Notes: a model not told the origin generated them from the letters alone. 64,000 nucleotides of DNA from Chloroflexota bacterium (GCA_037440925.1 JBBITF010000006.1:1-64000); one strand, 5' to 3'. Shown: positions 28,497 through 48,944, numbered from the stretch's first letter. A program made the numbers and translations.

Positions 28497-29612
28497 ATGA
28501 CTACTACTGCTGCAAAACAAGAAAAGGCTGCCGGTTCGGGAGTATTGAACTTCCTGGTCGGTCTCGTGATCGTTGTGGTGCTGTCCTTCCTGGCACGCTG
28601 GTTCAAAGATCAGGTCTATGGAATCAAAGACCTTTTCGGCTGGGGCATTCCGGGTAAAGTGTTGGAATTCCCGCTCTGGGCTGCGCTGTTGGGTTTGATT
28701 TTCAATCCCATTCTGAAAGCGCTCAAGATCTATGAGTATGCCAAATCTGGCTTTCGCACCGAATTGTTCCTGAAGATTGGTCTGGTATTGCTCGGCGCAG
28801 GCATCAGTTTTAAGGTGATTGTCACCGCTGCGGCGGGCGCCATCATTCAGGGCATCATCATGGTCACTGCGGTGTACTTCTTCTCGTGGTGGCTAGGCGG
28901 TAAGTTTGGTCTGTCCGATTCCCTGCGCGCAGTTATGTCCACGGCTATTTCGATCTGCGGCGTCTCGGCTGCGATCGCTGCTGCTGGCTCAGTGTTGGCT
29001 AAGAAGGAAGAGATCACTTACGTGACCGCTCTCGTCATCATCACCGCGCTGCCTCTAATGGTGATTGCTCCGTTACTGGCAGGCGCAATGCACATGCCCG
29101 AGCCGGTAGCAGGCGCCTGGTTTGGCGGCAACGTAGATACGACGGCTGCAGTCGTGGGCGCAGGTACGATCTATGGCGAGACGGCTCAAAAGATCGCCAG
29201 TATCGTCAAGCAGACCCAGAATGCCTTGATTGGTGTGGTGGCCTTCCTGCTGGCGCTGTACTTCTCGACCGTGGTTGAAGGCAAGAAGGAAAAGCCCAGC
29301 GCCGCCATTATTTGGCAGCGCTTCCCCAAATTTGTGTTGGGTTTCATCATCACTTCGTTGCTTTTCACCTTTGCCGTGATCCCCGGACCCGGCAAAGACA
29401 CTCCTACGGCTGGCAACACAATTTCTAGCATGAAGGATTGGGCCTTCTGCCTGGCCTTTGTGTGCATGGGCCTGGAACTGTCGGTGAGCGGCCTCAAGAA
29501 GATGGGCTGGCCGCCGGTCATTGTATATCTCATCGTGACCGTGTTCAACACCCTGTTGGCCCTGGTGGTGTCTTGGCTGATCTTCGGCTGGTTATTCCCT
29601 GCAAGCCTGTAA
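28497..29612 (+). CDS. YeiH/UPF0324-family membrane protein (putative sulfate-exporter-family transporter)
   Basis: 371 aa with 10-11 TM helices. Gly-rich helices (FKVIVTAAAGAIIQGIIMVTAVYF, AAIAAAGSV) typical of PF03601. AGGAGG RBS. First gene before dsrA. Confidence 0.6.
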   Translation: MTTTAAKQEKAAGSGVLNFLVGLVIVVVLSFLARWFKDQVYGIKDLFGWGIPGKVLEFPLWAALLGLIFNPILKALKIYEYAKSGFRTELFLKIGLVLLGAGISFKVIVTAAAGAIIQGIIMVTAVYFFSWWLGGKFGLSDSLRAVMSTAISICGVSAAIAAAGSVLAKKEEITYVTALVIITALPLMVIAPLLAGAMHMPEPVAGAWFGGNVDTTAAVVGAGTIYGETAQKIASIVKQTQNALIGVVAFLLALYFSTVVEGKKEKPSAAIIWQRFPKFVLGFIITSLLFTFAVIPGPGKDTPTAGNTISSMKDWAFCLAFVCMGLELSVSGLKKMGWPPVIVYLIVTVFNTLLALVVSWLIFGWLFPASL

Positions 29613-29740
29613 GAGAATCTGCTCTGAGACGTAAAGAACATTTTCTGTGACCGTCTGAAAAGATAGAGGAGGGGAAAGCAAAGAGCATGCTTTCCCCTCT
29701 GCATAAAAACGGACTTCAGCGGTCGCATGGAGGTAAAAAT

Positions 29741-30928
29741 ATGGCTAAGGACTCCAAAACCCCTATGCTGGATCAACTTGAAACAGGGCCCTGGCCGAGT
29801 TTTGTAAAAGAGATTAAGCGCGCTGCTGCCAAAAAAGACACAGCCAAGGATTTGCTGGGGCAGTTGGAGCGTTCTTATCGTGACAAAATCGGTCACTGGA
29901 AACATGGCGGTATCGTTGGCGTGAAGGGCTACGGCGGCGGCGTGATCGGGCGTTATTCCGACCTGCCAGAGGAATTCCCGTCTGTGGCTGAGTTTCACAC
30001 CTTGCGCGTCAATATGCCGGCCGGGTGGTTCTATACTACCGAGAAATTACGCCAATTATGTGATGTGTGGGACAAACATGGCAGCGGCCTGACCAACATG
30101 CACGGCGCCACCGGCGACATCATCCTGCTCGGCGCGCCCTCGGATGCGTTGCAGCCCTGCTTCGACGACTTGAGCGAAATTGACTTCGATTTGGGCGGTT
30201 CCGGCAGCGATATGCGCACGCCTTCCGCTTGTGTGGGACCTGCCCGCTGCGAGTATGCCTGCATCGATACCCTGGATATCCTTCGTGAGGTTACCCTGGA
30301 ATTCCAGGATGAGTTGCACCGCCCGATGTTCCCCTATAAATCCAAGATCAAGATTTCGGGCTGCCCGAACGATTGCGTGGCTTCGGTAGCGCGCTCGGAT
30401 TTCTCGGTCATTGGTACCTGGCGGGACAAAATCCTGATTGACCCTGCCGAGGTTGTCAATTATGCCAACAGCGGTCTGGATATCCAGGACGAAGTGGTCA
30501 ACCTTTGCCCGACGAACTGCATGAAATGGGATGCAGCCGCGAAGAAACTGAGCATCGATGACGCAGAATGCAACCGCTGTATGCACTGCATCAACCTGAT
30601 GCCTAAGGCGCTGCGCCCCGGCAAAGACAAGGGCGCGACCATCCTGGTCGGCGGCAAGGCCCCCATTGTGCATGGCGCGTTGATGTCTTGGGTGGTTGTT
30701 CCTTTCATGAAAATGGAGCCGCCATACGATGAACTGAAAGAATTCATCCGCAAGGCTTGGGAATGGTGGGACGAGAATGGCAAGATGCGCGAGCGCTTGG
30801 GTGAACTGATTCACCGCATGGGCATGCGTTCGTTCTTGAAAGCCATGGGCCTGCCGCCCGTGCCGCAGATGATTCGCACACCGCGTGCAAACCCCTATTA
30901 CTTCTGGGATCCTGAGGAGGTGAAATAA
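29741..30928 (+). CDS. dsrA: Dissimilatory sulfite reductase alpha subunit
   Basis: [27 protein letters not shown]-terminus. Siroheme/[4Fe-4S] cysteine clusters ([18 protein letters not shown]). Ferredoxin-like insert (CPTNCMKW...CNRCMHC). GGAGGT RBS. Confidence 0.9.
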
Positions 30929-31986
30929 TGGCCCGCACTGACTTTGGCCCTCCGAACTATAAAGACATGCTTCCGCCTGTCATTGCAAAGAACTATGGAC
31001 AGTGGAAGTATCACGAGCGTGTCAAACCAGGCGTTTTGAAGCATGTTGCCGAATCTGGCGATGAGTTGTATACCGTCCGCGTCGGTTCTTGCCGCCTGGT
31101 CAGCACCGACTGGATCCGCGATGTGTGCCAGATTGCCGACAAATATTGCGGCGGCCACCTGCGGTTTACCAGCCGCCACAACCTAGAGTTTCTGGTTTCT
31201 GACAAGAATCAGGTTGAACCTCTGCTGGCTCATCTCAAGCAAGAAGGCTACGCCGTAGGCGGCACCGGCCATGCCATCAGCAACCCGGTGCATACTCAGG
31301 GGTGGATTCACTGCCATACGCCCGCCACCGACGCCTCCGGCATTGTCAAGGCCGTGATGGACGATTTGTTCGAGTATTTCACAGATTGGAAGTTGCCGGC
31401 CTATTGCCGCATTTCTCTGGCTTGTTGTTTGAACATGTGCGGCGCGGTGCATTGCTCCGACATCGCCATCCTGGGTATCCATCGCAAGCCGCCGCACATC
31501 AATCACGATACGGTGCGCGCTAAATGCGAAATCCCCAACGTGATTGCGGCTTGTCCTACTGGCGCCATTCGTCCTGACCCCAAGGAAAAATCGCTGACGG
31601 TCAATGAAGAGAAGTGTATGTACTGTGGCAACTGCTATACCATGTGCCCGGGCATGCCGTTGGCCGATCCAGAGGGCGATGGCGTATCCATTTGGGTGGG
31701 CGGCAAGATTTCGAGCGCGCGCACAGCCCCCAAATTCTCTCGTCTGGTCATCCCTTACTTGCCCAACAATCCGCCGCGCTGGCCCGAAGTGACCGCGGCC
31801 GTGCGCAACATTGTTGAGACTTGGGCAAGCCATGCCCGCAAGCACGAGCGCATGGGCGAGTGGATTGACCGTATTGGTTGGGAACGATTCTTCGATCTGA
31901 CAGGCATTCCGTTCACTGTCCAACTCATTGACGACTTCACTCTGGCTACTGAAACCTTCCGGTCAACGCCTGCCTTCAAGTGGTAA
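30928..31986 (+). CDS. dsrB: Dissimilatory sulfite reductase beta subunit
   Basis: TAATG overlap with dsrA. Cysteine clusters (CHTPATDASG; CCLNMCGAVHC). Ferredoxin domain (CPTGAIRP...CMYCGNCYTMCP). Confidence 0.9.
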   Translation: MARTDFGPPNYKDMLPPVIAKNYGQWKYHERVKPGVLKHVAESGDELYTVRVGSCRLVSTDWIRDVCQIADKYCGGHLRFTSRHNLEFLVSDKNQVEPLLAHLKQEGYAVGGTGHAISNPVHTQGWIHCHTPATDASGIVKAVMDDLFEYFTDWKLPAYCRISLACCLNMCGAVHCSDIAILGIHRKPPHINHDTVRAKCEIPNVIAACPTGAIRPDPKEKSLTVNEEKCMYCGNCYTMCPGMPLADPEGDGVSIWVGGKISSARTAPKFSRLVIPYLPNNPPRWPEVTAAVRNIVETWASHARKHERMGEWIDRIGWERFFDLTGIPFTVQLIDDFTLATETFRSTPAFKW

Positions 31987-31997: not shown

Positions 31998-32207
31998 ATG
32001 AGCGACGAAGTGACGGAGGAACTGAAGAATCAAATCGTTGAATTCTTCAAACAAAAAGGGAAGATGATGACCCATCGTGATGTTGCCAAAGGCCTTGACC
32101 TGGATCAAAAACTGGTCAAGAAGGCGCTGACAGAATTAGTCAATGCCGGCACATTGGAATTTACTTCCTTTGGCGGCGCCACGTTCATCAAACTCCCCGG
32201 CACATGA
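31998..32207 (+). CDS. dsrD: DsrD (small winged-helix protein of reductive-type dsr operons)
   Basis: 69 aa directly after dsrB. KKALTELVNAGTLEFTSFGGATFIKL matches the DsrD wH signature (K-K-x-L-x-x-L-V-N-x-x-L-E-(Y/F)-x-S-x-G). Confidence 0.7.
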   Translation: MSDEVTEELKNQIVEFFKQKGKMMTHRDVAKGLDLDQKLVKKALTELVNAGTLEFTSFGGATFIKLPGT

Positions 32208-32251: not shown

Positions 32252-32569
32252 ATGCCTGTAGTCGAACTGAATGGGATACAGGTAAGTGTGGACGAGGATG
32301 GTTTCATTGAAGACCCTTCCGTATGGAATGAGGAATTGGCGGCTGCCATTGCCAAAACCGAGGAAGTCAATGAATTGACCGAGGATCATTGGAAGGTAGT
32401 CAAGTATCTGCGGGAATATTACCTGCAATTTGGCATTGCGCCCATGATCCGTAAACTCTGCAAAGAGACCGGTTACGACCTCAAAACCATTTACGAGTTA
32501 TTTCCAAGCGGTCCAGCCAAAGGCGCCTGCAAGATTGCTGGCTTGCCCAAGCCCACTGGCTGCGTCTAG
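32252..32569 (+). CDS. dsrC: DsrC (TusE/DsrC family) with complete C-terminal arm
   Basis: 105 aa ending ...CKIAGLPKPTGCV with both conserved cysteines. GAGGAGG RBS. Confidence 0.9.
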   Translation: MPVVELNGIQVSVDEDGFIEDPSVWNEELAAAIAKTEEVNELTEDHWKVVKYLREYYLQFGIAPMIRKLCKETGYDLKTIYELFPSGPAKGACKIAGLPKPTGCV

Positions 32570-32601: not shown

Positions 32602-32668
32602 GGGGATAGGGGGGAGCAGATGTGCAAATCAGCCGTCTTCCTGCCCCCTATCCCTTGTTGTTTCTTTG
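32602..32668 (+). terminator. Attenuator/partial intrinsic terminator between dsrC and dsrM
   Basis: GGGGATAGGGGGGAGCA ...21-nt loop... CTGCCCCCTATCCC followed by TTGTTGTTTCTTT. Confidence 0.45.
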
Positions 32669-32675
32669 AGGCACT

Positions 32676-33422
32676 ATGAGCACAAGCGATATTTTGTGGA
32701 CCCTGCTTTCCCTCTTTTTCATTGGTCTGGCTTATTTTGCAGCCTTTTCTTTCGTGGCAGGTTTGCTGTGGAAATTCTACGGTTACTTGCGCACTCCCAT
32801 GCCTTTACCTCATGCTGTGACACCTGCTCCTAAGACAGAAGGGGGAGCCGTCTTACGCGTGTTAGGAGATGTCACCCTCTTCTCCAACCTGTTCAAAGCC
32901 GATAAATGGTTGTGGGGAGGTGCGTGGCTCTTCCATGTTGCCTTGGCTGCGGTTTTATTCCGTCACTTGCGTTATTTTACTTACCCCGTGCCTGGACTGG
33001 TCCTATACATGGAATCGGTGGCGCTATTCTTTGGCAGTTTGCTGGGGGCGGCTGCCTTGTTCCTGTTTTGGCGGCGGCTGGCTTTGCCGCGCACACTCTA
33101 TATTTCTAATATCCCCGATTATTTTGCCCTGGCTTTGTTGGGCGTGATTGCCGGCAGTGGCCTGATGGTGAATTACTGGTTGCGCGTCAATATCGTAGAT
33201 GTCAAAGGCTTTATTTTGGGATTGATGACTTTCCATCCTGTCGAAGTACCTCATCATCCCTTGTTCCTCTTGCATTTACTGGCCGTCCTGATTTTGATGA
33301 TTTACTTCCCTTTCAGCAAGTTGCTCCATGCAGGCGGTCTGATTTTCAGCCCCTCGCGTCATCAGCCTTTTCAGGTGCAGGTGCGCGGCAAGCGTTATAT
33401 CAATCCAGTTGACCGTTATTGA
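32676..33422 (+). CDS. dsrM: DsrM (NarI-like diheme b membrane subunit)
   Basis: 248 aa, 5-6 TM. Conserved His in TM helices (FHVALAAVLFRHL; HHPLFLLHLL). Position and size match DsrM/HdrE. Confidence 0.8.
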   Translation: MSTSDILWTLLSLFFIGLAYFAAFSFVAGLLWKFYGYLRTPMPLPHAVTPAPKTEGGAVLRVLGDVTLFSNLFKADKWLWGGAWLFHVALAAVLFRHLRYFTYPVPGLVLYMESVALFFGSLLGAAALFLFWRRLALPRTLYISNIPDYFALALLGVIAGSGLMVNYWLRVNIVDVKGFILGLMTFHPVEVPHHPLFLLHLLAVLILMIYFPFSKLLHAGGLIFSPSRHQPFQVQVRGKRYINPVDRY

Positions 33423-33433: not shown

Positions 33434-34879
33434 ATGTCGAAATTCGATGAGACTCCGATTGTCAAAGACCCGGCAGTAAATGGCGTCTTGCGCCCGCCCA
33501 AACTCCGCGAACACGCTTCGGCAGAGGTGCAGTGTTATCCGAGCAAGCCCAAAGATACTTCGGCCATTGATTTGCCGACCGAATTGGTGCCGGATTGGAA
33601 AGAGCGTGCCATTGCCAGATTGGGCGAGTTGTTGGAAAAGAACCAGGCCTTGCGCGTCTACATGGACATCTGTGTGCGCTGCGGCGCCTGCACCGACAAA
33701 TGCCAGTTCTTCCTGGGGACGGGCGACCCGCAGAACTTCCCGGTGGCGCGCGCGGAACTGCTGCGAAAAGTCTATCGCCGCTACTTTACGCCGGCCGGTC
33801 TCTTCCCAGACCTGGGAGAGGCCGCCGATTTAGACGAAGAGATGCTCCAGAAGTGGTACACCTACTTCTACCAATGCTCCGAATGCCGCCGCTGTTCGGT
33901 CTTTTGCCCGTATGGCATAGATACTGCCGAAATTACCATTGCCGCGCGCGAGATCATGGCCTCGATTGGTGTCTCGACCAAATACATCACGGAAGTTGTG
34001 GCAAAGGTCTATGCTACTGGCAACAATCTGGGCATTCCGCCGGCTGCCTGGAAGGACAACTGCGAATTTCTCGAAGAGGATGTGCAGGCGGATACCGGCC
34101 TGCCTATCCGCTTCCCAGTCGATGAGAAAGGCGCCGAAGTTCTGCTGGTGCCGCCCTCGGCCGATAACTTTGCCAATACTGACACCATGATTGGCTATGG
34201 CAAACTCTTCCATTTCTTGGGCGTCAGTTGGACAACCAGCACCTACTGTAATGAAGGCGGTAACTTTGGCCTGTTCTTGAATTTTGCCAACTTGAAAAAA
34301 GTCAACCGCCGCATTCTGGATGCCGCCCGCGAATTGGGCGTCAAGACCATTATCTGGGGTGAGTGTGGACATGCCTGGCGGGCAGGCATTATGACGCCTT
34401 CGCTCAATGGCCCGATGGATGATTTCGATCCGCCTTATCCGTACCATATTAGCCAGTATATCGTTGACATGCTGCACAAAGGCGCTTTCGAGGGCCACAT
34501 AGACAAGTCGGCCAATGACCAGTATCTTGTCACCTATCATGACCCGTGCAATTCTGCGCGCGCGGGCTACCTCATCGAAGAACCGCGTGAGATCATCCGC
34601 GCCGTTTGTAACCGCTTTGTCGAAATGCCAGAAGGCACCATCCGCGAAAAGACTTTTTGCTGCGGCGCAGGCAACGGCCTGTTGACGGATGAGATTATGC
34701 CCATCCGCATGGCGGGCGGCAAACCGCGCGCCATGGCCGTCAAGCACACCGGCGCCAATTACCTGGCCACTGTATGTGCAATTTGCAAGGCGCAATTGCC
34801 CGAATCCATGCACTATTGGCAGGTGCCGGTCAAGGTGGGTGGCGTGATTGACTTGCTGGCGAACGCTCTCAAATTCTAG
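33434..34879 (+). CDS. dsrK: DsrK (HdrD-like CCG-domain Fe-S protein)
   Basis: Two ferredoxin Cys clusters (CVRCGACTDKC; CSECRRCSVFCP). Two CCG motifs (YHDPC...CCGAGNG). Confidence 0.85.
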   Translation: MSKFDETPIVKDPAVNGVLRPPKLREHASAEVQCYPSKPKDTSAIDLPTELVPDWKERAIARLGELLEKNQALRVYMDICVRCGACTDKCQFFLGTGDPQNFPVARAELLRKVYRRYFTPAGLFPDLGEAADLDEEMLQKWYTYFYQCSECRRCSVFCPYGIDTAEITIAAREIMASIGVSTKYITEVVAKVYATGNNLGIPPAAWKDNCEFLEEDVQADTGLPIRFPVDEKGAEVLLVPPSADNFANTDTMIGYGKLFHFLGVSWTTSTYCNEGGNFGLFLNFANLKKVNRRILDAARELGVKTIIWGECGHAWRAGIMTPSLNGPMDDFDPPYPYHISQYIVDMLHKGAFEGHIDKSANDQYLVTYHDPCNSARAGYLIEEPREIIRAVCNRFVEMPEGTIREKTFCCGAGNGLLTDEIMPIRMAGGKPRAMAVKHTGANYLATVCAICKAQLPESMHYWQVPVKVGGVIDLLANALKF

Positions 34880-34894
34880 CCCTTGGAGACAGCC

Positions 34895-35197
34895 ATGCGC
34901 AAAGTAGCCTTGTCTCTCGTTGTATTCGGAATTCTGCTCTTGACGGTCCTCTTTTATCCGCGCTATGTGGAGAAACCCGTCAAGGACGGTGAAGGGCCGT
35001 TGGCGATTTACCTTGACCCCAGCCTGCCGGCGCCTGAATATCACAGCCCCTTAGACTGGTGGAAACGGAATCACAAGACGATCGTCAATCGCGGCGACCT
35101 GGACAGGCGCGATTGCCTGCAATGCCATGACCCGGCCACCTCTTGCAACAATTGTCACGCTTATGTGGGCGCGGCTGAGATTGTCGTTGCCCCCTAA
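34895..35197 (+). CDS. Membrane-anchored diheme cytochrome c
   Basis: ATG 34895 (GGAGA RBS). N-terminal TM anchor. Two CxxCH motifs (CLQCH, CNNCH). 100 aa. Confidence 0.65.
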   Translation: MRKVALSLVVFGILLLTVLFYPRYVEKPVKDGEGPLAIYLDPSLPAPEYHSPLDWWKRNHKTIVNRGDLDRRDCLQCHDPATSCNNCHAYVGAAEIVVAP

Positions 35198-35659
35198 ATG
35201 GTGAGCGCTATGACGGATACTTCTGTTTCCTCTCCTAAACCTTCCATTTTCTCCCGCCGCCGCCAGTTTATTCAACTGGGCTTCTTGACGGTGGCAGCCG
35301 CCTGGCTGGGAACATGGCTGCAAGCGCGTCTCTTCCCGGCCGCCAGCGCCAGCCAGGAAGCTGCGCCGGTCTCTTTTCCATTGAGCGACTTGCCGGTTGG
35401 CGGAGCCAAAGCCATTACGTATGGCGGCATTCCTGTATTGGTATTGCGCACCCCGCAGAGTCTCCGCGCCTTCTCGTTGATTTGCACGCACCTGGGCTGT
35501 ATTGTGGAATGGCAAGATAACAAGAAGGAATTTTATTGCCCTTGTCACGATGGCCGCTATGATGAATTTGGCGATGTGTTGGCCGGCCCCCCGCCCATTC
35601 CGTTGGAGCAATTTGCCGTGCGCATCGAGGGCGAACAAGTCATCGTCGGCGAGGCTTGA
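35198..35659 (+). CDS. TAT-exported Rieske [2Fe-2S] protein
   Basis: Twin-arginine motif SRRRQFIQ. Rieske boxes CTHLGC and CPCHDG. TAAATG overlap with upstream gene. Confidence 0.8.
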   Translation: MVSAMTDTSVSSPKPSIFSRRRQFIQLGFLTVAAAWLGTWLQARLFPAASASQEAAPVSFPLSDLPVGGAKAITYGGIPVLVLRTPQSLRAFSLICTHLGCIVEWQDNKKEFYCPCHDGRYDEFGDVLAGPPPIPLEQFAVRIEGEQVIVGEA

Positions 35660-35674
35660 GGCAGGAGAATGAAC

Positions 35675-40704: not shown

Positions 40705-42791
40705 AACGACGAATTCTGCTTCCCTCCCTGGTCTTCCTGGCGGTCCTGACGCTGGCCGTCGGCTCCGTCTCCGCTTCCTCCCTCGACTTCAGCCTGCCTG
40801 CCTCGGCCGAAGGAGAGACTCTCGTCTCCGGCAATTACTGCGCCTCCTGTCATCTGACCGATGACCCGCGCCTGGCGTCTGCCACGGCTTGGAAAGGCGG
40901 CATCCAAAGCAAAGTCAACTCGCCCTGCCCGGCAGCCATCAAAATACACGAAGAACTATATTACACCGAACGGTTGCTGCTCATGATCGAACGCGCCGAA
41001 AACGCAGTTGGCCCCTTGCCCGAAAAGAGCCAGGCTCGTTTGGAGGACTATACCCAGCGTTACAGCCGTATGCTCGATACGCCTGTCGGCAGCCTGGACG
41101 CTTTCGTCAGTGAAGCCCAGTCAACTCGTTATCAGTTGAACAAGGCCTATGCTGCGCTCAATCAAATGGCGCAAGACGCCAAACAGCGCACAATCTTGAC
41201 GTATGCGGCGGCGATTACCTTGATTGTGCTTGGCTCATTGGCCTGGGGCGTGTACAACTCCCGCGCGCTGGCCTCTGGAAAGGTGAGCCGATCTTGGGGG
41301 CTATTCTGGCGTGTGCTGTTTATCGTGGCTGTTGTGGCGTTCTTTACCTTGCCTTTCTTCCGTGTGCCGGCCGAAGAGGTGGTGATGACCACTGCCGAAC
41401 AGCAGGAAGCCCAGGCAACCCTCGATGCCGCTCAACGCGCAGCCGACGCTGCCGACCGTTCGCAGGCGCGCGCCTGGATGTTAGCCCGCGTTGCGGCTGC
41501 CTATGCCGAAATGGACGCCGCCCAAGCCCAGGCTATCCTGGATGAAGCGCTGACCTCGCTCGACGTAGCCCGCAAGAACGAAGAAGCCCTGTGGGGGCAA
41601 AGCCTGGTCGTGCAAGAAGTGACGGTTGGCACCAAAATCGAAATGGAATCGGCCGGCCTCATCACCGCCGACCTGAACGCTGCCCGCGCCCGCGCCTGGG
41701 CCTTGCCGCTGGTTGCCCGGCAGTGGAACGCCCTCGATCCAATCAAAGCCGCCGCCCTCTTACAGGCCGAACAGGACGCCCTGATTGGCCAAGAAGGCCT
41801 CTACCGTGATTTACAATTGCGCGCCCTATCGCTGGCCTGGGTCGAAGTGAATCCTTCCAAGGCCGCCCCTGCTGCCGCCCAAATACAGGACGCTTCCCTG
41901 CGCGCCTGGACCTTCCGTGAACTGGCGGACCTGACCCACAACCCCTCACTCTATGACAAAGCCCTCCAGGCTGCGCGTGAAATCACGGACCCTGTCCAGA
42001 AAGCGCGCGCCCTGCGAGAGATTGCCCACTCTTCTGGCAAGAGCGCCCTTTTCGAGGAAGCCCTGACCGCGCTAGATGGCGTGACCGACCCCGCTTTGGC
42101 CTATGCCCTCAGCGACCTGGCCGCTGCCTGGGGCAACGCTTCTCTGGTCGAAAGAATCGCCTACCCCGATGCCCGCGCCAGCGCCTTGCTGCGCATGGGA
42201 GAATACCCCTCCGCTTGGGAGGCGGCGGCAGGCATCGCTGATCCTTACGAACAGGCGCGCGCCCAAGCCGCCATTGCTTCTGCCTGGGGCAATGCCGATG
42301 CCGCCATGCAGATTGCTGTCCCCTTATACCGCGATTTGGCATTGCGCGATGTCATCCGAAAAACGGGAAATACGTCACTGGCAGAGGCAATTACCTCCAA
42401 GTACTATAAAGTCCAGGCTCTAACTGCTCTAGGCGAGACCGAATCTGCCCTCCAAGTAGCCGCCGACCTGGGCGAAACCTACCCCTTGGTTGATTTGGCT
42501 GTCCATTTGTCCGCCTCCAATCCGCAGGCGGCGTTGGCCTTGGTCGAGCAGATGAAGCGCGAAAGCGACAAAGCCATTGCCTTGCAGGCTATTGCTGTTG
42601 CCTCGCAGGACCCGTCGCTCATCGAACAGGCGCAGGGCATGGCACTGGCCGCCCGCGTGCGCGGCGACTCGCTGGCCCCGGCCCAGGCTTTGCTCGATCT
42701 TGCAAATGCCCTTCTGGAAGTAGATGTCAAATACGCAGAAGCAGCCTTTCGTCAGGCGTATGAAGCGGCGCAGCGCATTGCAACCAAATGA
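40701..42791 (+). CDS. Monoheme cytochrome c fused to two TM helices and a ~450-aa Ala-rich alpha-helical repeat domain
   Basis: Signal peptide. CASCH heme motif at residues 48-52. TM helices near residues 175-230. Then about 31-aa repeats (…DP..QKARALREIAHS…; …DPALAYALSDLAAAWGN…; …DPYEQARAQAAIASAWGN…). Confidence 0.6.
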   Translation: MKRRILLPSLVFLAVLTLAVGSVSASSLDFSLPASAEGETLVSGNYCASCHLTDDPRLASATAWKGGIQSKVNSPCPAAIKIHEELYYTERLLLMIERAENAVGPLPEKSQARLEDYTQRYSRMLDTPVGSLDAFVSEAQSTRYQLNKAYAALNQMAQDAKQRTILTYAAAITLIVLGSLAWGVYNSRALASGKVSRSWGLFWRVLFIVAVVAFFTLPFFRVPAEEVVMTTAEQQEAQATLDAAQRAADAADRSQARAWMLARVAAAYAEMDAAQAQAILDEALTSLDVARKNEEALWGQSLVVQEVTVGTKIEMESAGLITADLNAARARAWALPLVARQWNALDPIKAAALLQAEQDALIGQEGLYRDLQLRALSLAWVEVNPSKAAPAAAQIQDASLRAWTFRELADLTHNPSLYDKALQAAREITDPVQKARALREIAHSSGKSALFEEALTALDGVTDPALAYALSDLAAAWGNASLVERIAYPDARASALLRMGEYPSAWEAAAGIADPYEQARAQAAIASAWGNADAAMQIAVPLYRDLALRDVIRKTGNTSLAEAITSKYYKVQALTALGETESALQVAADLGETYPLVDLAVHLSASNPQAALALVEQMKRESDKAIALQAIAVASQDPSLIEQAQGMALAARVRGDSLAPAQALLDLANALLEVDVKYAEAAFRQAYEAAQRIATK

Positions 42792-42812: not shown

Positions 42813-43196
42813 ATGTTGAATGAATATACCGGTAAGCGCGTTCTTGTGATTGCCACCTTTGGTTCTGCTAACCCAGAGCGCGGCCCCGGTCCATTTGTCT
42901 TTGCCGGCGAAGCCGCCAGGGGCGGCGCTGAAGTCATGCTCATCTTTGTCTTGCAAGCGCCGCTGCTCCTCAAGCGGGGCGTTGCGGAGAAATTGTATGC
43001 CAAACAAGGCGGGCGTACCATCCGCGAATTCATTGATGATGCCCTGCGGCTTGGGGTAAAATGCTATGTGTGTGATACGGCGTTGCAACTTTGCGACATG
43101 ACGCCCGAAGACTTGATTGAAGAAGTGGACGAACTGGTCGGCCCCAGTTTCTTGATCAAACAAGGATTACAGGCTGATCTGGTTCTCTCTTTCTAA
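42813..43196 (+). CDS. DsrE/DsrF-family (sulfur-relay-like) protein
   Basis: 127 aa, KRVLVIATFGSANPERG N-terminus characteristic of the DsrE/DsrF/TusD fold. Conserved Cys (CYVCD). Confidence 0.55.
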   Translation: MLNEYTGKRVLVIATFGSANPERGPGPFVFAGEAARGGAEVMLIFVLQAPLLLKRGVAEKLYAKQGGRTIREFIDDALRLGVKCYVCDTALQLCDMTPEDLIEEVDELVGPSFLIKQGLQADLVLSF

Positions 43197-43215: not shown

Positions 43216-43416
43216 ATGTTCATCGTAACCATTGATATCCAAAAATGTAAAGCCTGCGGTGATTGCGTGGAAAATTGCCCTCAACAGGCCATTGCCATCA
43301 CCGAAGAAGGCGGCAAAAAGTATGCCATGTTTACCGGTAGTCCCGATGATTGTATTGGCTGCTTATCCTGCGAATCTTCTTGTGAAGAAGGCGCCATTAC
43401 CGTTACCGAGTACTAA
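43216..43416 (+). CDS. 2x[4Fe-4S] ferredoxin
   Basis: 66 aa. CKACGDCVENCP and CIGCLSCESSCE motifs. Confidence 0.8.
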   Translation: MFIVTIDIQKCKACGDCVENCPQQAIAITEEGGKKYAMFTGSPDDCIGCLSCESSCEEGAITVTEY

Positions 43417-43463: not shown

Positions 43464-44888
43464 ATGACTGCTCGAACCCGTCATGCGCCTCGTCTGGTCA
43501 TTGCGGCGCCCCAGGGTCGAAGTGGAAAAACCACCCTGACCTTGGGATTGTGCGCCGCATTCAAAGCGCGCGCGCTGACCATCCAGCCCTACAAAAAAGG
43601 ACCCGATTACATTGATCCCTCCTGGCTGAGTGAAGCCGCTGGAACCCTCTGCCGTTCCCTAGACCCTTTCTTTTACGAAAAGCCCGAAGAACTCTTACGG
43701 GCTTTTCTGCGCTCTGCTCCTCAAGATGGGGTGAGCCTGATCGAAGGCAATCACGGCTTGTTTGACTCCTTCGATGAAAGCGGACGAGGTAGCACGGCTG
43801 CGGTTGCGCGCACGTTGCAGGCTCCCCTCCTGTTGGTGATCAATGCCGCCCGCATGGGGCGCAGCGCCGCGGCCATCGTGCATGGCTGTCAAACCTTCGA
43901 GCCAGAAACGAACATCGCCGGCGTGGTTCTGAACAACGTAGCGCAAGGTCGCCACGAGGCCCGTATGCGCCAGGCCATTGAAAGTCGCTGCGGTGTGCCT
44001 GTATTGGGCGCCATTCCACGCGACGAAACCCTGACCATCCCCGACCGTCACCTGGGATTGGTGCCTCGCGCCGAACAAGACGCGCTTCTTCCCGCCATCA
44101 CAGCCTGCCGGCAGACTATCGAGCGCTACCTCGACCTCGATGCTGTCCTGGCTATAGCCCGGGCTGCGCCTGCTTTACCCGCTCCCTCTCCGGCCTCCTC
44201 CGCGGCCCAGCCGGTCTCGCATCGGCCGCTCATCGGCGTCCTGCGCGACCGTGCCTTTACCTTCTACTACCCTGAAAATTTAGAAGCCCTGGAAGAAGCC
44301 GGTGCCGACCTGCTCTTCCTGGACGCTTTGCGTGACGCCGAATTGCCCCCTGTAGACGCCCTCTACATCGGCGGCGGCTTCCCCGAAATATTCATGGACG
44401 AGTTGTCTGCCAACGTTTCTCTGCGCCGCGCCATCCGCGAAGCCATCGAAAACGACTTGCCGGTCTACGCCGAATGCGGCGGCCTGATGTACCTCTCCCA
44501 GCGCATTGTGTGGGGCGAAAAATCGGCCGAGATGGTGGGCGCCTTGCCCTGCGAAATCGAAATGACCTCCAAACCCCAGGGACATGGCTACGTAACTGCC
44601 CAGGTGGAGGCCGAGAATCCTTTTTTCTCGCCGGGCCTGCTCTTGCGTGGACATGAGTTCCACAACTCGCGGCTTGTAATGCTCCCTGGCAACCGCCTTG
44701 CAACGGCTTATCGCCTCTTGCGCGGCAATGGAGTAGGCGATGGCCGCGATGGGCTTCTTTACCGTAACACATTGGCTTCTTACACTCATTTGCATTCTGG
44801 CGGAGCGCCTGACTGGGCCGTTGGCCTGGTTCATCGGGCGCAGGTTTATCGAGAAAACCGCCTACAAGCAGAAATGGATAACAGATGA
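43464..44888 (+). CDS. dsrN: DsrN (cobyrinic acid a,c-diamide synthase homologue; siroheme amidase)
   Basis: CbiA/CobB architecture with N-terminal P-loop (APQGRSGKTT) and C-terminal glutamine amidotransferase domain (YAECGGLMYL). Located in the dsr locus. Confidence 0.75.
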   Translation: MTARTRHAPRLVIAAPQGRSGKTTLTLGLCAAFKARALTIQPYKKGPDYIDPSWLSEAAGTLCRSLDPFFYEKPEELLRAFLRSAPQDGVSLIEGNHGLFDSFDESGRGSTAAVARTLQAPLLLVINAARMGRSAAAIVHGCQTFEPETNIAGVVLNNVAQGRHEARMRQAIESRCGVPVLGAIPRDETLTIPDRHLGLVPRAEQDALLPAITACRQTIERYLDLDAVLAIARAAPALPAPSPASSAAQPVSHRPLIGVLRDRAFTFYYPENLEALEEAGADLLFLDALRDAELPPVDALYIGGGFPEIFMDELSANVSLRRAIREAIENDLPVYAECGGLMYLSQRIVWGEKSAEMVGALPCEIEMTSKPQGHGYVTAQVEAENPFFSPGLLLRGHEFHNSRLVMLPGNRLATAYRLLRGNGVGDGRDGLLYRNTLASYTHLHSGGAPDWAVGLVHRAQVYRENRLQAEMDNR

Positions 44889-46015
44889 GGCTGCCTCTCC
44901 TTTCCAATATTGGTAATTTTTTCCCAAAATTGCGCTCGAAACCGGATGTCCAGGCCTCCAAAAAACGGCCGTTTAACGTCGTGCAAATCGAAATCACCAG
45001 TCGCTGCAGCACCGGCTGTGTCTTCTGCCCGCATGATGCTTTGTCTGACAAATGGATAGACGGGGACCTGTCGCCGCTCATGTATGAAGAATATATCGTC
45101 CCGCATCTGGATTTGTTCGATTTGGTGTACCTGCAAGGCTGGGGCGAACCTATGCTGCACCCCAACCTGTGGGATATGCTGGCCTCGGCTCAAGACAAGG
45201 GTTGCCGCACCGGCTTCACCACCAACGGCGCCTGGCTGCAAAGCGAACAAAATCAGCGTCTGGTAGAGATGGGTGTGGATATGATTTCCGTCTCTTTTGC
45301 CGGGACGGCTGCTCCCATTCACGAATCGCTGCGTACCAATTCTCAGTTTGCCGAACTGTGTAGCAATTTCGAGAGCCTGGCCAACCTCAAGAAACAACGC
45401 GGCGTGACCAAACCCTGGCTCGAATTGCATTTCCTGATGACCCGCGCCAATTTGAAAGAATTCCCTGGCCTGGTCGAACTGGCTGCCTCCCTAGGCGCGG
45501 ATGAAGTAGTCGCCACCAACCTCACCTATTCCCCGAGCCTGGCGCTAGACCGGATGCACATCTTTGGCGAACAGCCTCTGCCTGAAGATGTCGAACTGAT
45601 TCAGCGCGCCCAAGCCAACGCTGAACGGCTGAACATTCCGCTGCGCGTTTACCCGCTCCAAACCGAACCCAATACCCTGGTCTGTGACGCTGACCCGCTC
45701 AATACCGTGTACGTCAACCATCGCGGCGAGGTCTCCCCTTGTGTCTATCTGGGGCTAACAGTGCAGGGAAGGGTTCCGCGCTTCTATCAGGGCGAAGCTC
45801 ACCCATTTGACGCCCTTTCCTTTGGAAATATTCAGACAGGTTTCTTGAAGGCGCTTCATGGAAAAGAGCGCGAGACCTTCCTGTCTGCTTTCAAACAACG
45901 CAATATGACCAGCGGCCCTCTGGCGATGCTTACCTACATGTCCGAACCAGGCCAGGCTGAATTGCCGCCTCCGCCTGTCCCTTGTCAGCATTGCTACAAA
46001 ATGTTGGGCGTGTGA
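44885..46015 (+). CDS. Radical SAM protein with C-terminal SPASM/twitch-like Cys cluster (AhbC/AhbD/NirJ-like)
   Basis: CxxxCxxC (CSTGCVFC). GGE-like GWGEP motif. C-terminal cysteines (CVYLG...CQHCYK). ATGA overlap with dsrN stop. Confidence 0.65.
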   Translation: MRLPLLSNIGNFFPKLRSKPDVQASKKRPFNVVQIEITSRCSTGCVFCPHDALSDKWIDGDLSPLMYEEYIVPHLDLFDLVYLQGWGEPMLHPNLWDMLASAQDKGCRTGFTTNGAWLQSEQNQRLVEMGVDMISVSFAGTAAPIHESLRTNSQFAELCSNFESLANLKKQRGVTKPWLELHFLMTRANLKEFPGLVELAASLGADEVVATNLTYSPSLALDRMHIFGEQPLPEDVELIQRAQANAERLNIPLRVYPLQTEPNTLVCDADPLNTVYVNHRGEVSPCVYLGLTVQGRVPRFYQGEAHPFDALSFGNIQTGFLKALHGKERETFLSAFKQRNMTSGPLAMLTYMSEPGQAELPPPPVPCQHCYKMLGV

Positions 46016-46085
46016 ACGATCATGATCGCTCAACTCCCTACTTTTCTTTTGAGAGGACCTAAAATTTTTGTTGAAGAGGTTTCCA

Positions 46086-48944
46086 ATGCCAAACGATGCA
46101 CAAAATAAGACAGCCAAGAACCAAGAGCAAGCCTGGCACGCGCTGCCTGTCGAGGAAGTGCTTCGCCACCTCGAAGTGCAGGAAAATGGATTGAGCGCCG
46201 AACAGGCTGCCCAACGTTTGAAACAATATGGACCGAACCAATTGCAGGAAGCGCCGCGCCCCACCTTTTGGCACATGCTGTGGGAGCAGTTGAACAACTT
46301 TGTGGTCATCCTGCTCATCGTGGCATCCATTATTTCTGCCCTCTTGGGCGATTACGTGGAAGCCGCTGCCATCATGGCCATCGTCGCGCTGAATGCCGTT
46401 CTCGGCATCATTCAGGAACAGCGCGCCGAAGAAGCCCTGGCGGCATTGAAAAAATTGGCCGCGCCCGATGCCCAGGTGCTGCGCGATGGCCGCCGGCAGA
46501 CCATCCCGGCGCGCGACCTGGTGCCCGGCGACATCGTCTTCCTGGAAGCAGGCAATTTCGTCCCGGCGGATGTGCGCCTGCTCGAGGCGGTCAACCTGCG
46601 CATCGAAGAGGCCTCCCTCACCGGCGAGTCCCTGCCGGTGCAGAAGAGCGCCGTTTCCATCATTGACAAGGATGTGCCGATTGGCGACCGCAAGAACACC
46701 GCCTTCATGGGGACGACCGTTTCCTACGGGCGCGGACGCGGCGTGGTGGTCAGCACCGGGATGCGCACCCAGTTGGGCCTGATCGCCACCATGCTCCAGA
46801 CCGTGGAAACAGAGGAAACCCCGCTCCAGCGTCGCCTCGATCAGTTGGGCAAGACCTTGAGCATCGCCTCGCTCATCCTGGTTGCCATCGTCTTCGTGGT
46901 GGCTTTGCTCGATTACACCAATATCAATTTGCTTTTCAGCGGGCCGCTGGATTACTTCAAATCCTATAGCCGCGAGATTACGGATGTGTTCATCATCGCG
47001 GTCAGTCTGGCGATTGCAGCCGTGCCAGAGGGCCTGCCGGCCGTTGTGACTATCAGCCTGGCGCTGGGTATGCGCGAGATGATCCGCCGTCACGCCCTCA
47101 TCCGCAAACTGGCCTCTGTGGAGACGCTTGGCTCGGCCACCGTCATCTGTTCCGATAAGACCGGCACCCTGACTCAGAACGAGATGACCGTTACGCGCCT
47201 GTGGGCCGACGGCCAGTTCTTGCATGTCACCGGCACGGGCTACGTTCCGCAAGGAGAGTTTCAGGTGGATGGGAAGACAGTGGACATCAAGAACTATCCC
47301 GCCATCCTGACCTCCCTGTGGCTGGGCGTGCTGAACAACGACGCCGACATCGAGATTACCGGCGAGACTGAGGACGAAAAGACCTACCGCATCGTGGGCG
47401 ATCCCACCGAGGGCGCGTTACTTGTGGCGGCGGCCAAAGCAGGCGCCTTCCACGTCGAGGTGAAGCAGGCCTACCCGCGTGAGAACGAAGTGCCGTTCGA
47501 CTCGGAACGCAAGCGTATGATCACCATCCACGATGTAAGCCAACCGCGCCCGGAGGATATTTCCCCCTTTTATGACAACAAGATGAAGGATTGGGAGGTG
47601 ATTGCCGTCAAAGGCGCGCCCGACATCGTGCTGGGATTGTGTTCCCATTACCAGACGATGGATGACAAATCGAAACCGCTGACCGAAGAACAGCGCCAGC
47701 GCATCTTAGCCGCCAACGACGAGATGACGAAAGATGCTCTGCGCGTGCTGGGCGTGGCTTACCGCATCGTAAAAGAAGTGCCACAGACGGCTGACGGCTT
47801 GAAACCCGAAGAACTGGAAAAAGACCTGGTCTTCGTCGGCCTCTTGGGCATGATTGACCCGGCGCGTTTAGAAGTCAAACCTGCGCTCGAACAGGCGCGC
47901 CAGGCCGGCATCCGCACCGTCATGATCACCGGCGACTATCCTAACACCGCGCGCGCCATCGCCGAATCCATCGGCCTGATGAAGCGCCGCACGCGCGTGC
48001 TGACCGGCGCCGAAGTAGACAAAATGTCTGACGATGGGTTGCGCGACGTCATCGAGGAGACGGCCGTCTTTGCGCGCGTCTCGCCGGAACACAAGATGCG
48101 CATCGTGGACGCGCTGCAAGCCAATGGCGAAGTGGTCGCCATGACCGGCGACGGCGTCAACGATGCCCCGGCCATCAAGCGCGCCGACATCGGCGTAGCC
48201 ATGGGCATCACCGGCACCGACGTGGCCAAGGAAACCGCCGACATGGTGTTGACCGACGACAATTACGCCAGCATCGTCTCGGCGGTCGAGCAGGGACGCA
48301 TCATTTACAGCAACATCCGTAAATTTGTATATTATCTGCTTTCCTGCAATGTGGCAGAAATCCTGGTCATCTTCCTGGGTACGCTCATCTCGAAGAGCTC
48401 TCCTCTCACGGCTATCCAATTGCTCTGGCTCAACTTGGTGACCGACGGCGCCCCTGCTTTGGCCCTGGCCACGGAAAAGGGAGATCCAGACATTATGTCT
48501 CGTTTACCCCGTCCAAAGAATGAACCCATTATCAATCGTTTCATGCAATTGGGCATTCTTGTCCAAACGCTTGCCATTACCAGCGTGACGCTGGGGGCCT
48601 ACTTCTTGGGGTTGAAACTTCACCCCGAACAGCCCGAGTTTGCAGAAGCCATGGCGTTCGTTACCTTGTCACTCTCTGAACTGGCGCGCGCTTTTACGGC
48701 TCGCTCGGAATACTACCCCTTGTTCAAAATCGGGGTGTTCACGAACCGCAATATGAACCTGGCGATTCTACTTTCGGCCGCTTTGATCTTTGCGGTCATC
48801 TACATCCCATTCTTCAACCCCATTTTCAATACCGTTCCGCTAGGCTGGCAACAATGGGAAGTGTTGCTGCCTTTGCTCCTGGTGCCATCCCTGGCTGCTG
48901 AGATACTCAAGTATATCCATCAAAAAACTCGGAAACAGGATTGA
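46086..48944 (+). CDS. P-type ATPase, type IIA (Ca2+/Mg2+-transporting, SERCA/PMR1-like)
   Basis: DKTGTLT phosphorylation motif, TGES, GDGVNDAPAIKRADIG hinge, 10 TM. ATG 46086 (alternative TTG 46068). Confidence 0.85.
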   Translation: MPNDAQNKTAKNQEQAWHALPVEEVLRHLEVQENGLSAEQAAQRLKQYGPNQLQEAPRPTFWHMLWEQLNNFVVILLIVASIISALLGDYVEAAAIMAIVALNAVLGIIQEQRAEEALAALKKLAAPDAQVLRDGRRQTIPARDLVPGDIVFLEAGNFVPADVRLLEAVNLRIEEASLTGESLPVQKSAVSIIDKDVPIGDRKNTAFMGTTVSYGRGRGVVVSTGMRTQLGLIATMLQTVETEETPLQRRLDQLGKTLSIASLILVAIVFVVALLDYTNINLLFSGPLDYFKSYSREITDVFIIAVSLAIAAVPEGLPAVVTISLALGMREMIRRHALIRKLASVETLGSATVICSDKTGTLTQNEMTVTRLWADGQFLHVTGTGYVPQGEFQVDGKTVDIKNYPAILTSLWLGVLNNDADIEITGETEDEKTYRIVGDPTEGALLVAAAKAGAFHVEVKQAYPRENEVPFDSERKRMITIHDVSQPRPEDISPFYDNKMKDWEVIAVKGAPDIVLGLCSHYQTMDDKSKPLTEEQRQRILAANDEMTKDALRVLGVAYRIVKEVPQTADGLKPEELEKDLVFVGLLGMIDPARLEVKPALEQARQAGIRTVMITGDYPNTARAIAESIGLMKRRTRVLTGAEVDKMSDDGLRDVIEETAVFARVSPEHKMRIVDALQANGEVVAMTGDGVNDAPAIKRADIGVAMGITGTDVAKETADMVLTDDNYASIVSAVEQGRIIYSNIRKFVYYLLSCNVAEILVIFLGTLISKSSPLTAIQLLWLNLVTDGAPALALATEKGDPDIMSRLPRPKNEPIINRFMQLGILVQTLAITSVTLGAYFLGLKLHPEQPEFAEAMAFVTLSLSELARAFTARSEYYPLFKIGVFTNRNMNLAILLSAALIFAVIYIPFFNPIFNTVPLGWQQWEVLLPLLLVPSLAAEILKYIHQKTRKQD

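Follow-up and report, generated by a model that had tools for sequence, protein, structure and literature searches.

An eight-gene redox module adjoining dsrMK as a possible counterpart of DsrJOP in reductive-type dsr loci of Anaerolineae

The dsr locus considered here lies at positions 28,497 to 48,944 of a 64,000-nucleotide stretch of DNA (GCA_037440925.1 JBBITF010000006.1:1-64000), which is called the window throughout and which, judged by its sequence, belongs to an uncultured Anaerolineae (Chloroflexota) bacterium represented by a metagenome-assembled genome (MAG). Directly behind dsrMK, this locus carries a conserved set of eight genes encoding, in this order, a dihaem cytochrome c (c2), a Rieske protein, a monohaem cytochrome c (c1), a subunit of the molybdopterin-oxidoreductase family (MoB), an iron-sulfur subunit (FeS), a quinone-interacting membrane subunit (NrfD), a small one-helix protein (sTM) and a 696-residue haem protein (c696). 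We tentatively interpret this module as a lineage-specific functional counterpart that would replace DsrJOP, a reading to which we give just under even credence. The module is joined to dsrK, the gap between dsrK and c2 being 3 bp and that between c2 and the Rieske gene 0 bp. A first-pass annotation of this DNA had described some 14 kb of accessory genes behind dsrMK; about 7.9 kb of these form one tightly conserved unit, composed as follows.

34883..35197, + strand: c2, membrane-anchored dihaem cytochrome c with two CxxCH motifs
35198..35659, + strand: Rieske [2Fe-2S] protein of the bc/b6f type, with a twin-arginine translocation (TAT) signal and an anchor (PF00355 49 bits; TIGR01416 70 bits)
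35669..36049, + strand: c1, secreted monohaem cytochrome c with one CxxCH motif
36081..38450, + strand: MoB, TAT-exported subunit of the molybdopterin-oxidoreductase family (PF00384, PF04879, PF01568, PF10518)
38478..39164, + strand: FeS, four-cluster subunit without signal peptide (QrcC 267 bits; DsrO 192 bits, cutoff 200; ArrB 160 bits)
39169..40497, + strand: NrfD, ActC-like 10-helix quinone-interacting membrane subunit (ActC structures in PDB, 217/202/200/182 bits)
40516..40704, + strand: sTM, conserved 62-residue protein with a single transmembrane helix, in an HmcD-like place in the gene order
40701..42791, + strand: c696, 696-residue protein that has a signal peptide, a c domain with one haem, a pair of transmembrane helices and, at the C-terminus, an alpha-solenoid of some 470 residues

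Relatives of the locus were sought by scanning one genome per GTDB species, which yielded 59 loci, and gene order was compared by tblastn and blastp in a matrix of the loci numbered L001-L064 plus eight metagenome loci; the sample for module synteny consists of the 59 species-level genome loci, the 8 metagenome loci and L001-L005, about 67 in total. All of the 59 belong to Chloroflexota, bar L064, a 2.5-kb fragment from a MAG deposited as 'uncultured Eubacteriales', and Candidatus Desulfolinea nitratireducens (L009) is among them. The closest relative found, DAOUCM010000240.1 (L016), is 97% identical, with proteins 91-100% identical to those of the window, and the closest homologues of DsrA, MoB and c696 all come from Anaerolineae/Chloroflexota MAGs. 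Every sufficiently long locus but one (about 67) has the order YeiH-dsrABDC-MK-c2-Rieske-c1-MoB-FeS-NrfD-(sTM)-c696-...-DsrE-ferredoxin-DsrN, and the outer flanks vary among loci sharing this core order. The sole exception, L037 (CP070811.1, 2216190-2238556), lies on a complete Anaerolineales chromosome, where c1-MoB-FeS-NrfD-c696 occur without any dsr, dihaem cytochrome or Rieske gene within 10 kb and are preceded by a LuxR/GerE-type gene and a 161-residue open reading frame (ORF) with no family match; the closest metagenomic relative of this locus is dsr-linked. Since exactly c2 and the Rieske gene are both missing from the dsr-less locus, these two genes appear to travel with the linkage to DsrMK. 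Most relatives also have an HmcE-like (213 residues) and HmcF-like (454 residues, 332 bits) pair between c696 and the DsrE-like gene (for instance at 17092-19107 in L004), and with this pair the order c1-MoB-FeS-NrfD-sTM-c696-E-F resembles hmcABCDEF; the window's clade is without the pair at that position.

The first-pass annotation had taken the MoB-FeS-NrfD trio for a PsrABC-like Mo enzyme, a description that fails at the active site of MoB as well as at its membrane partner. An ungapped HMMER alignment of MoB with ArrA, anchored by the motif GSPNxIS, places Gly186 opposite the Mo-ligand Cys193, and over 62 homologous loci this column holds Gly in 45, Ala in 8, Asp in 7, Asn in 1 and a gap in 1, but never Cys, Ser or selenocysteine. 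Invariant in these 62 loci are the FS0 cysteines (C58, C61, C65, C92/93) and the Lys/Arg after the last of them; Glu187, next to the ligand position, is likewise invariant, and the 'DPR' motif, which we take to bind molybdopterin guanine dinucleotide, reads HPR. This change and the lack of a molybdenum-cofactor riboswitch in the window are the only hints from sequence that bear on a Mo-bisPGD cofactor. The nearest 142 representatives of MoB clusters at 50% identity include only 16 with a Cys near the ligand position, and the Asp of DPR is kept in 12 of these 16, compared with 24 of the 126 representatives lacking the Cys. The family scores of MoB (PhsA 336 bits, QrcB 294 bits with a cutoff of 440, ArrA 274 bits) are all below cutoffs. 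Given that the ligand Cys is absent and that the partner subunits are ActB/ActC/QrcC-like, the trio does not qualify as a polysulfide or thiosulfate reductase under the test that defines these enzymes. It would rather stand between the catalytic complex iron-sulfur molybdoenzymes and the cofactor-less QrcB/ActB1, QrcB being a TAT-bearing relative without any cofactor (PMC13059093). The idea of an arsenite oxidase (a ligand-less Mo subunit together with a Rieske protein) was rejected on scores of 27 bits for AioA and 33 bits for AioB, and is further ruled out by the four cysteines of FS0 and by the large subunit bearing its own TAT signal. A second MoB copy is found in the MAG of L004/L010 (L060, JBMOMN010000017.1), covering residues 349-786 only and followed by a 23-residue FeS remnant; this is probably either a pseudogene or a fragment due to assembly.

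In the PDB, the FeS subunit matches the C-terminal half of ActB from alternative complex III (ACIII) with 190 bits, and its score for QrcC stays below that family's cutoff of 400; this subunit is presumably co-exported with MoB. NrfD can be aligned from end to end with the ActC chains of four solved ACIII structures, the best being 6F0K_C with 217 bits, and the PDB search gave no match to PsrC and no 8-helix anchor of the PsrC type. All thirteen residues of the N-side channel, the Glu-Arg gate and the quinol-site residues Ser133 and Asp138, as listed in PMC8076601, are conserved in NrfD, and its Asp116 occupies the position of ActC His139 and DsrP Asp106, as in DsrP and QrcD (PMC8076601). The identity of NrfD to the window's copy is bimodal among the relatives (69-92% versus 38-45%) and out of step with the other subunits, as in a case where MoB is about 80% and FeS about 85% identical, yet NrfD only 43%. 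The loci with divergent NrfD (L002, L012, L014, L020, L059 and others) are mostly without a detectable sTM homologue, a distribution that suggests joint exchange of NrfD and sTM as a cassette.

At least 96% of loci retain the haem and Rieske cofactor motifs of the module. Both CxxCH motifs of c2, a protein with no Pfam, NCBIfam or PDB match, are retained in all 52 loci compared, and the single motif of c1 in 57 of 58. The two Rieske boxes CTHLGC and CPCHDGRY, disulfide cysteines included, are both present in 53 of 55 loci, and the Rieske protein reaches up to 80 bits against b6f/bc1 Rieske proteins of the PDB. A 127-residue ORF at 35656-36039 was rejected as a wrong-frame overlap of the monohaem cytochrome gene. 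The gene for sTM (40516-40704), overlooked in the first-pass annotation, fills an apparent gap of 203 bp between NrfD and c696; homologues with the motif MDIGxLVxAFFxxAGPGG...LTRWI occur in 35 loci, and ORFs of 47-59 residues are called at this place in L002, L004 and L005. Finally, c696 has its haem motif, CASCH, at residue 47 (retained in 53 of 54 loci) and 233 homologues, all under hypothetical or generic automatic names. It has no sequence match in Pfam, NCBIfam or the PDB, and a fold search with its AlphaFold2 model (predicted local distance difference test score 81.6) returned only generic alpha-solenoid or tetratricopeptide-like repeat folds with low TM-scores.

The genes to which this module is joined are the following.

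32676..33422, + strand: dsrM, NarI-like dihaem cytochrome b (PF02665; NF038037 142 bits, cutoff 300)
33434..34879, + strand: dsrK, catalytic subunit with CCG domains (NF045796 527 bits, cutoff 400)

Neither a trihaem DsrJ nor orthologues of DsrO and DsrP are found at the locus: the cytochromes, with two, one and one CxxCH motifs, match no family, the FeS subunit scores 192 bits for DsrO (cutoff 200) and NrfD 108 bits for DsrP (cutoff 350). To judge by these scores, the FeS and NrfD subunits are relatives, not orthologues, of DsrO and DsrP. The earlier comparison with the DsrMK of Gram-positive bacteria, which lack DsrJOP, is thus right about the missing orthologues, and it overlooked that a JOP-like function probably comes from the module. 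A 2026 cryo-EM preprint on DsrMKJOP proposes that quinol is oxidised at DsrP and that electrons pass through DsrO and DsrJ to DsrM and DsrK; according to the same work, the quinol site of DsrM in JOP systems is blocked by two arginines and a break in transmembrane helix 3, whereas in systems with only MK this site of DsrM is open and resembles that of NarI (10.64898/2026.08.25.746951). In the DsrM of the window, the haem histidines are H87/H97/H200/H218, and the invariant motif F-R96-H97-L-R99-Y-F-T-Y-P-V-P contains two arginines, R96 and R99, that flank the distal haem histidine H97. These residues may match the arginine-blocked site of JOP-associated DsrM, and the motif as a whole (R96/R99-YFTYPVP) would fit the blocked type, residue equivalence being only presumed; a PDB sequence search with DsrM gave nothing useful.

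Upstream of dsrM stands the sulfite-reductase part of the locus.

28497..29612, + strand: transporter of the YeiH/PF03601 family (PF03601 147 bits)
29741..30928, + strand: dsrA, 395-residue form (TIGR02064 579 bits, cutoff 393)
30928..31986, + strand: dsrB (TIGR02066 527 bits, cutoff 342)
31998..32207, + strand: dsrD (PF08679 32.7 bits, threshold 24.2)
32252..32569, + strand: dsrC, with two C-terminal cysteines (…KGACKIAGLPKPTGCV; …GACKIAGLPKPTGCV) (PF04358 135 bits)

The assignment of the DsrABDC core to the reductive type is supported by these matches and by comparison with solved structures, since the best PDB matches of DsrA are all reductive (Archaeoglobus fulgidus 3MM5_A with 582 bits, Desulfovibrio-type proteins with about 500 bits). 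Viral contigs scanned with a DsrA alignment and plasmids searched by tblastn yielded no DsrA of the oxidative type. On this core the first-pass annotation was accurate, both in recognising a reductive-type dsrABDC-MK set with DsrD and in the family signatures that it named: DsrA, DsrB and DsrC exceed curated cutoffs, DsrD exceeds the Pfam threshold, and DsrC's C-terminal arm, which ends in PKPTGCV with both cysteines, is invariant across 45 sequences. The dsrD gene begins 11 bp past dsrB and is kept in all relative loci; DsrL and DsrEFH are not present at the locus. The same combination, DsrD without DsrL and with reductive-type DsrAB, is known for dsr-bearing Chloroflexota from MAG surveys (PMC10591310, PMC8477390, PMC6018805). 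DsrA most likely starts at 29741, since its homologues, which come from Anaerolineae MAGs and are 80-100% identical, have 395 residues, GGAGG stands ahead of this start, and the alternative upstream in-frame ATG at 29687 is overlapped by a 13-bp leader hairpin covering 29669-29699. The PF03601 gene is found upstream of dsrA in every locus reaching that far, and its product is a candidate for the transport of sulfite or another oxyanion of sulfur.

The module can be compared with several characterised complexes. It resembles the JOP part of DsrMKJOP (Desulfovibrio, Archaeoglobus, Allochromatium) in standing next to a dihaem b-type DsrM and a DsrK above cutoff, and in having a DsrO-related FeS subunit, a 10-helix NrfD with the quinol-site Asp of DsrP, c haems at the outer face and a matching topology. 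The module differs in that a dihaem and two monohaem proteins take the place of trihaem DsrJ, in that its NrfD is closer to ActC than to DsrP, and in four added components: an FS0-bearing Mo-like subunit, the Rieske protein, the one-helix protein and the alpha-solenoid protein. ACIII (ActABCDEF) shares the full-length ActC match with its channel residues, the FeS subunit closest to the C-terminal half of ActB, a Mo-family domain in which the canonical active site is missing, a subunit with one haem, and small transmembrane subunits. In contrast to ACIII, the locus is without pentahaem ActA, the second NrfD-like subunit ActF and a fused ActB1-B2; its Mo-like and FeS subunits are encoded by separate genes, FS0 is kept, the linkage is to dsrMK rather than to oxidases, and a Rieske protein, never found in ACIII, is included. 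With Qrc (QrcABCD), the menaquinone reductase of Desulfobacterota, the module shares a TAT-bearing Mo-family subunit without catalytic Mo, a 10-helix NrfD, an FeS subunit whose best NCBIfam match is QrcC, cytochrome c partners and an association with the Dsr pathway. QrcB has lost all cofactors (PMC13059093), whereas MoB keeps FS0; moreover, hexahaem QrcA is missing, no score reaches its Qrc cutoff, NrfD is not matched by the QrcD model and a Rieske protein is added. PsrABC, PhsABC and ArrAB have the same gene order (large subunit, FeS, NrfD), a TAT signal and the best large-subunit scores (PhsA/ArrA/PsrA), but differ from the trio in its missing Mo-ligand Cys, its 10-helix ActC-like NrfD and the added cytochromes and Rieske protein. 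As for Hmc (HmcABCDEF), the gene order of most relatives parallels hmcA-F, but the module has no 16-haem HmcA, contains Mo-like and Rieske subunits, and adjoins in the window a cytochrome b/CCG pair that is DsrMK. A further parallel is offered by cable bacteria, in which DsrMKJ and a separate DsrOh-Ph-cytochrome complex likewise re-partition the JOP part and combine it with other cytochromes; there the subunits and the phylum are different, and neither a Mo-like nor a Rieske subunit has been reported.

In the scheme that we favour, DsrAB together with DsrD would reduce sulfite onto DsrC, and DsrK, anchored by DsrM, would reduce the DsrC trisulfide. The sulfur oxyanion would probably be moved by the YeiH-family carrier, and DsrN, the ferredoxin and the DsrE-like protein would serve in cofactor amidation, electron supply and sulfur handling, respectively. 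NrfD would oxidise menaquinol at the outer face of the membrane, where protons would be released, and the electrons would run through the FeS subunit, and possibly through FS0 too, to the c haems at the outer face and then to the b haems of DsrM, from which they would cross the membrane to DsrK and the DsrC trisulfide. Such a route would parallel the one proposed for DsrP, DsrO, DsrJ, DsrM and DsrK. The main roles of MoB would be those of a partner in TAT export, a scaffold and a wire for electrons, in the manner of QrcB/ActB1, and not that of a polysulfide or thiosulfate reductase. The sequences show the gene identities, the make-up of the module, the lost ligand cysteine and the nearly universal synteny with dsrMK; that the module associates physically with DsrMK, which way the electrons run and what the Rieske protein does are parts of this scheme that we infer.

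Several points weigh against this interpretation. Synteny and co-transcription would not by themselves prove a complex of the module with DsrMK. For a Rieske protein of the bc type that has the disulfide cysteines, a potential of some +100 mV or more is expected, which would suit a menaquinol-to-DsrK step poorly and points to a high-potential branch or another function; this poor fit is the main reason why readings of the locus as oxidative, of MoB as a catalytic Mo/W enzyme or of the module as an autonomous Hmc-like complex stay live. MoB itself keeps FS0, the Lys/Arg bridge, PF01568 and the invariant Glu187, so that catalysis is conceivable, as is a Mo/W cofactor with a carboxylate or, as in arsenite oxidase, no protein ligand. 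The HmcE/F-like pair follows the module in most relatives, and the module may serve that pair instead or in addition. In published trees, Chloroflexi DsrMK and DsrN also stand beside oxidative-type proteins (PMC10504309), so that electron flow could be reversed.

The readings that build on these points can be set against the same evidence. It is unlikely, in our estimation, that the locus is oxidative, at least facultatively, or tied to high-potential acceptors, comparable to cable bacteria and Desulfurivibrio with their reductive-type Dsr. Electrons from DsrC (via DsrK/DsrM) or from quinol at NrfD would then pass through the Rieske protein and the c cytochromes to nitrate, nitrite or oxygen reductases, the module being an ACIII-like quinol:cytochrome c oxidoreductase attached to Dsr. 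The bc-type Rieske protein with its disulfide cysteines, the ACIII-like NrfD and FeS subunits and a DsrE-like protein with a conserved Cys are in keeping with such a role, as are the reported 'chimeric' system of Chloroflexi, in which DsrMK and DsrN are sister to oxidative-type proteins (PMC10504309), and the abundance of Ca. Desulfolinea nitratireducens, which encodes nitrate reductases and oxidases, in suboxic water (PMC8359478). The locus nevertheless has DsrD and reductive-type DsrAB without DsrL/DsrEFH (PMC10591310), the window shows neither a terminal oxidase nor a nitrate reductase in linkage with it, and the hallmarks of ACIII (pentahaem ActA, the second NrfD-like ActF and fused ActB) are missing. 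Quite unlikely is the view of MoB-FeS-NrfD as a true periplasmic sulfur-compound oxidoreductase, of the Psr/Phs/Ttr or a new type, that would convert thiosulfate, polysulfide or tetrathionate to sulfite and/or sulfide, with sulfite imported via YeiH and reduced by DsrAB and with the cytochromes and the Rieske protein as extra points of electron entry or exit. MoB does score best with PhsA (336 bits) and ArrA/PsrA (274 bits; 241 and 207 bits in the PDB), it retains FS0, the bridging Lys/Arg, the TAT signal, PF01568 and the invariant Glu187, and the metabolic logic is coherent with YeiH and with the psrA/phsA annotations in Ca. Desulfolinea (PMC8359478). Against this, the ligand position lacks Cys, Ser or selenocysteine in 62 of 62 loci and is variable (G/A/D/N), DPR is altered to HPR, the partners are ActB/ActC/QrcC-like and not PsrB/PsrC-like, the scores for catalytic families are all far below cutoffs, and an enzyme of the Psr type requires neither a Rieske protein nor three cytochromes.

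Rather improbable is also an autonomous Hmc/Qrc-like complex with an HmcE/HmcF-like pair as its cytoplasmic partner, merely co-located or co-regulated with dsrMK. It would account for the order c1-MoB-FeS-NrfD-sTM-c696-E-F mirroring hmcABCDEF and for L037, in which c1-MoB-FeS-NrfD-c696 stand with no dsr gene within 10 kb. Yet in the window and its nearest relatives the E/F pair has been lost from that place while the module still abuts dsrK, c2 and the Rieske gene separate dsrK from the other module genes in every dsr-linked locus and are absent exactly where dsr is absent, and only one locus in about 67 is dsr-less, its closest metagenomic relative being dsr-linked. Finally, DsrM and the Rieske protein could conceivably form a bc-like site of the Qo type that splits the two electrons of menaquinol, a proposal that we regard as highly improbable: one electron would be driven upward via the b haems to reach DsrK and the trisulfide of DsrC, and the other via the Rieske protein and the c haems to the FeS-NrfD unit and the quinone pool or to a high-potential acceptor. 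If true, such bifurcation would be a new way to make the poorly driven step from menaquinol to DsrC feasible and to pump protons. In a weaker variant of this highly improbable proposal, the ligand-less MoB would be a new type of catalytic site that uses Glu187 or no protein ligand.

Around the core and the module, the locus and its borders contain the following further genes.

26867..27454, − strand: protein of the DVU0298 family, HEAT-like (NCBIfam NF045662 118 bits, cutoff 75)
27559..27969, + strand: conserved 136-residue membrane protein with no family match, preceding YeiH
42813..43196, + strand: DsrE-like protein with one conserved cysteine, Cys87 (PF02635, PF13686)
43216..43416, + strand: 66-residue 2x[4Fe-4S] ferredoxin, matched by many ferredoxin families
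43464..44888, + strand: dsrN, CobB/CfbB-like amidase for sirohaem amidation (PF07685, PF01656; TIGR00379 445 bits)
44885..46015, + strand: radical SAM/SPASM maturase-like protein (PF04055, PF13186; TIGR04317 125 bits and TIGR04311 117 bits, below cutoffs)
46068..48944, + strand: type IIA (Ca2+/PMR1-like) P-type ATPase (TIGR01522 737 bits)

The genes for the DsrE-like protein, the ferredoxin and DsrN are conserved, the ferredoxin standing ahead of dsrN in nearly all loci, and dsrN has as its 3' neighbour the radical-SAM gene within the window's clade but hemA in certain other relatives. A 127-residue ORF at 43232-43615 was rejected as a spurious wrong-frame overlap of the ferredoxin gene. The radical-SAM gene overlaps dsrN by 4 bp and recurs downstream in 17 loci, with 68-93% identity in 9 close relatives and 42-46% in 8 distant ones, and a homologue of about 30% identity lies upstream on the − strand in 12 other loci. 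The P-type ATPase occupies the window's position solely in the closest relatives (L006, L007, L013, L015, L016); in five distant loci (L030, L032, L034, L036, L049) an ATPase with 55-58% identity stands upstream on the opposite strand. On both genes the first-pass annotation needs amending: the ATPase is there in a minority only and is probably not part of the system, and the position of the radical-SAM gene shifts among relatives. On the other side, the DVU0298-family gene is divergent from the dsr locus and recurs upstream of dsr in about 12 relatives, and the 136-residue membrane protein (27559..27969) has homologues, 30-92% identical, at the equivalent position in most loci. The DVU0298-family and radical-SAM genes recur beside dsr in L001, L005, L024-L026 and others, being adjacent upstream on the − strand in L001 and split between the two ends of the locus in the window, which hints at a shared role in maturation.

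Just past the end of the locus, and likewise overlooked earlier, lies a second set of redox genes in convergent orientation, preceded by an HTH_3/cupin regulator (the whole region spanning 49015-54404 on the − strand).

49015..53726, − strand: convergent Hmc-type transmembrane redox complex, made up of the four genes below
52350-53726, − strand: HmcF/DsrK-like CCG protein (DsrK 291, TmcB 214, HmcF 193 bits)
51610-52314, − strand: HmcE-like cytochrome b
50822-51613, − strand: HmcB-like FeS protein without signal peptide and with a C-terminal anchor
49015-50820, − strand: HmcC-like NrfD with a fused C-terminal domain that bears six CxxCH motifs

With this Hmc-like set and the module, the window has two different JOP-like solutions despite the lack of dsrJOP orthologues.

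The likely transcript boundaries were located by folding the intergenic spacers, a consensus terminator scan having performed no better on the window than on shuffled sequence. Three structured elements stand out.

29669..29699, + strand: 13-bp GC-rich hairpin in the 5' leader of dsrA, also picked up by the consensus terminator scan
32602..32655, + strand: hairpin followed by a U-rich tail (UUGUUGUUUCUUU) in the dsrC-dsrM spacer (fold z = -3.3)
48951..48995, no strand assigned: perfect 16-bp hairpin with U and A tracts (fold z = -5.3)

The dsrA leader (29610-29745) folds with -47 kcal/mol and z = -5.5. The dsrC-dsrM spacer, 106 bp long in the window and 75-508 nt among relatives, is strongly structured in all 48 loci in which it can be measured, and its hairpin is likely a terminator, an attenuator or an RNA-stability element; the conservation of this structured spacer suggests an attenuator or stability element that separates the dsrABDC unit from dsrMK and the module. 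The hairpin at 48951..48995 is, by its predicted fold, an intrinsic terminator for both directions, and the locus ends with it between the ATPase gene and the HmcC-like gene, which converge there. Within dsrABDC, and again between dsrM and the radical-SAM gene, the gaps are -4 to 47 bp wide. Of the one or two transcripts proposed in the first-pass annotation, more than one is therefore probable, given the structured spacer behind dsrC and the terminator behind the ATPase. In the remaining points, that annotation was borne out: each gene that it listed between 28497 and 48944 was found on the + strand with significant family matches, intergenic distances across the locus are indeed small or overlapping (-4 to 128 bp), sat, aprAB and qmo are not encoded among the major ORFs of the 64-kb window, and it appropriately left the physiological direction open. 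The flanks of the window code for beta-oxidation enzymes, SecA, aconitase, cysteinyl-tRNA synthetase and similar functions. An Rfam scan of the window matched a single tRNA gene, at 16382-16453 (+), and no riboswitch, the molybdenum-cofactor type included. A 136-residue ORF at 28075-28485 (+) matches no family, is patchily conserved and has a low GC content at third codon positions (0.42); it probably does not represent a gene, and this region may instead hold the promoter or leader of YeiH.

Loci of this type are already known from public MAGs and surveys, and a review annotates psrA/phsA/sreA-type genes in Ca. Desulfolinea (PMC8359478). Full-text searches on dsrMK, NrfD, ACIII, Qrc and DsrMKJOP with Rieske proteins and on Anaerolineae dsr genes retrieved no description of the module, and both the composite of DsrMK, Rieske and ACIII/Qrc-like subunits and the ligand-less large subunit that retains FS0 appear undescribed. 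For MoB, these observations call for caution with the labels psrA and phsA, and hence with inferences of sulfur or thiosulfate respiration in these MAGs. Having lost the Mo ligand but not FS0, MoB would be a molybdoenzyme part-way through its decay, beyond the Psr-type enzymes and short of QrcB/ActB1, which have no cofactor left. The coupling of electrons and energy conservation to the final step of sulfite reduction is a matter of active research, and here the JOP part would have been replaced in an environmentally widespread lineage, represented by no fewer than 59 Anaerolineae genomes at species level and by metagenomic protein clusters in the hundreds, that includes Ca. Desulfolinea of the Black Sea. 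Such a replacement would be a natural experiment on the role of the JOP part.

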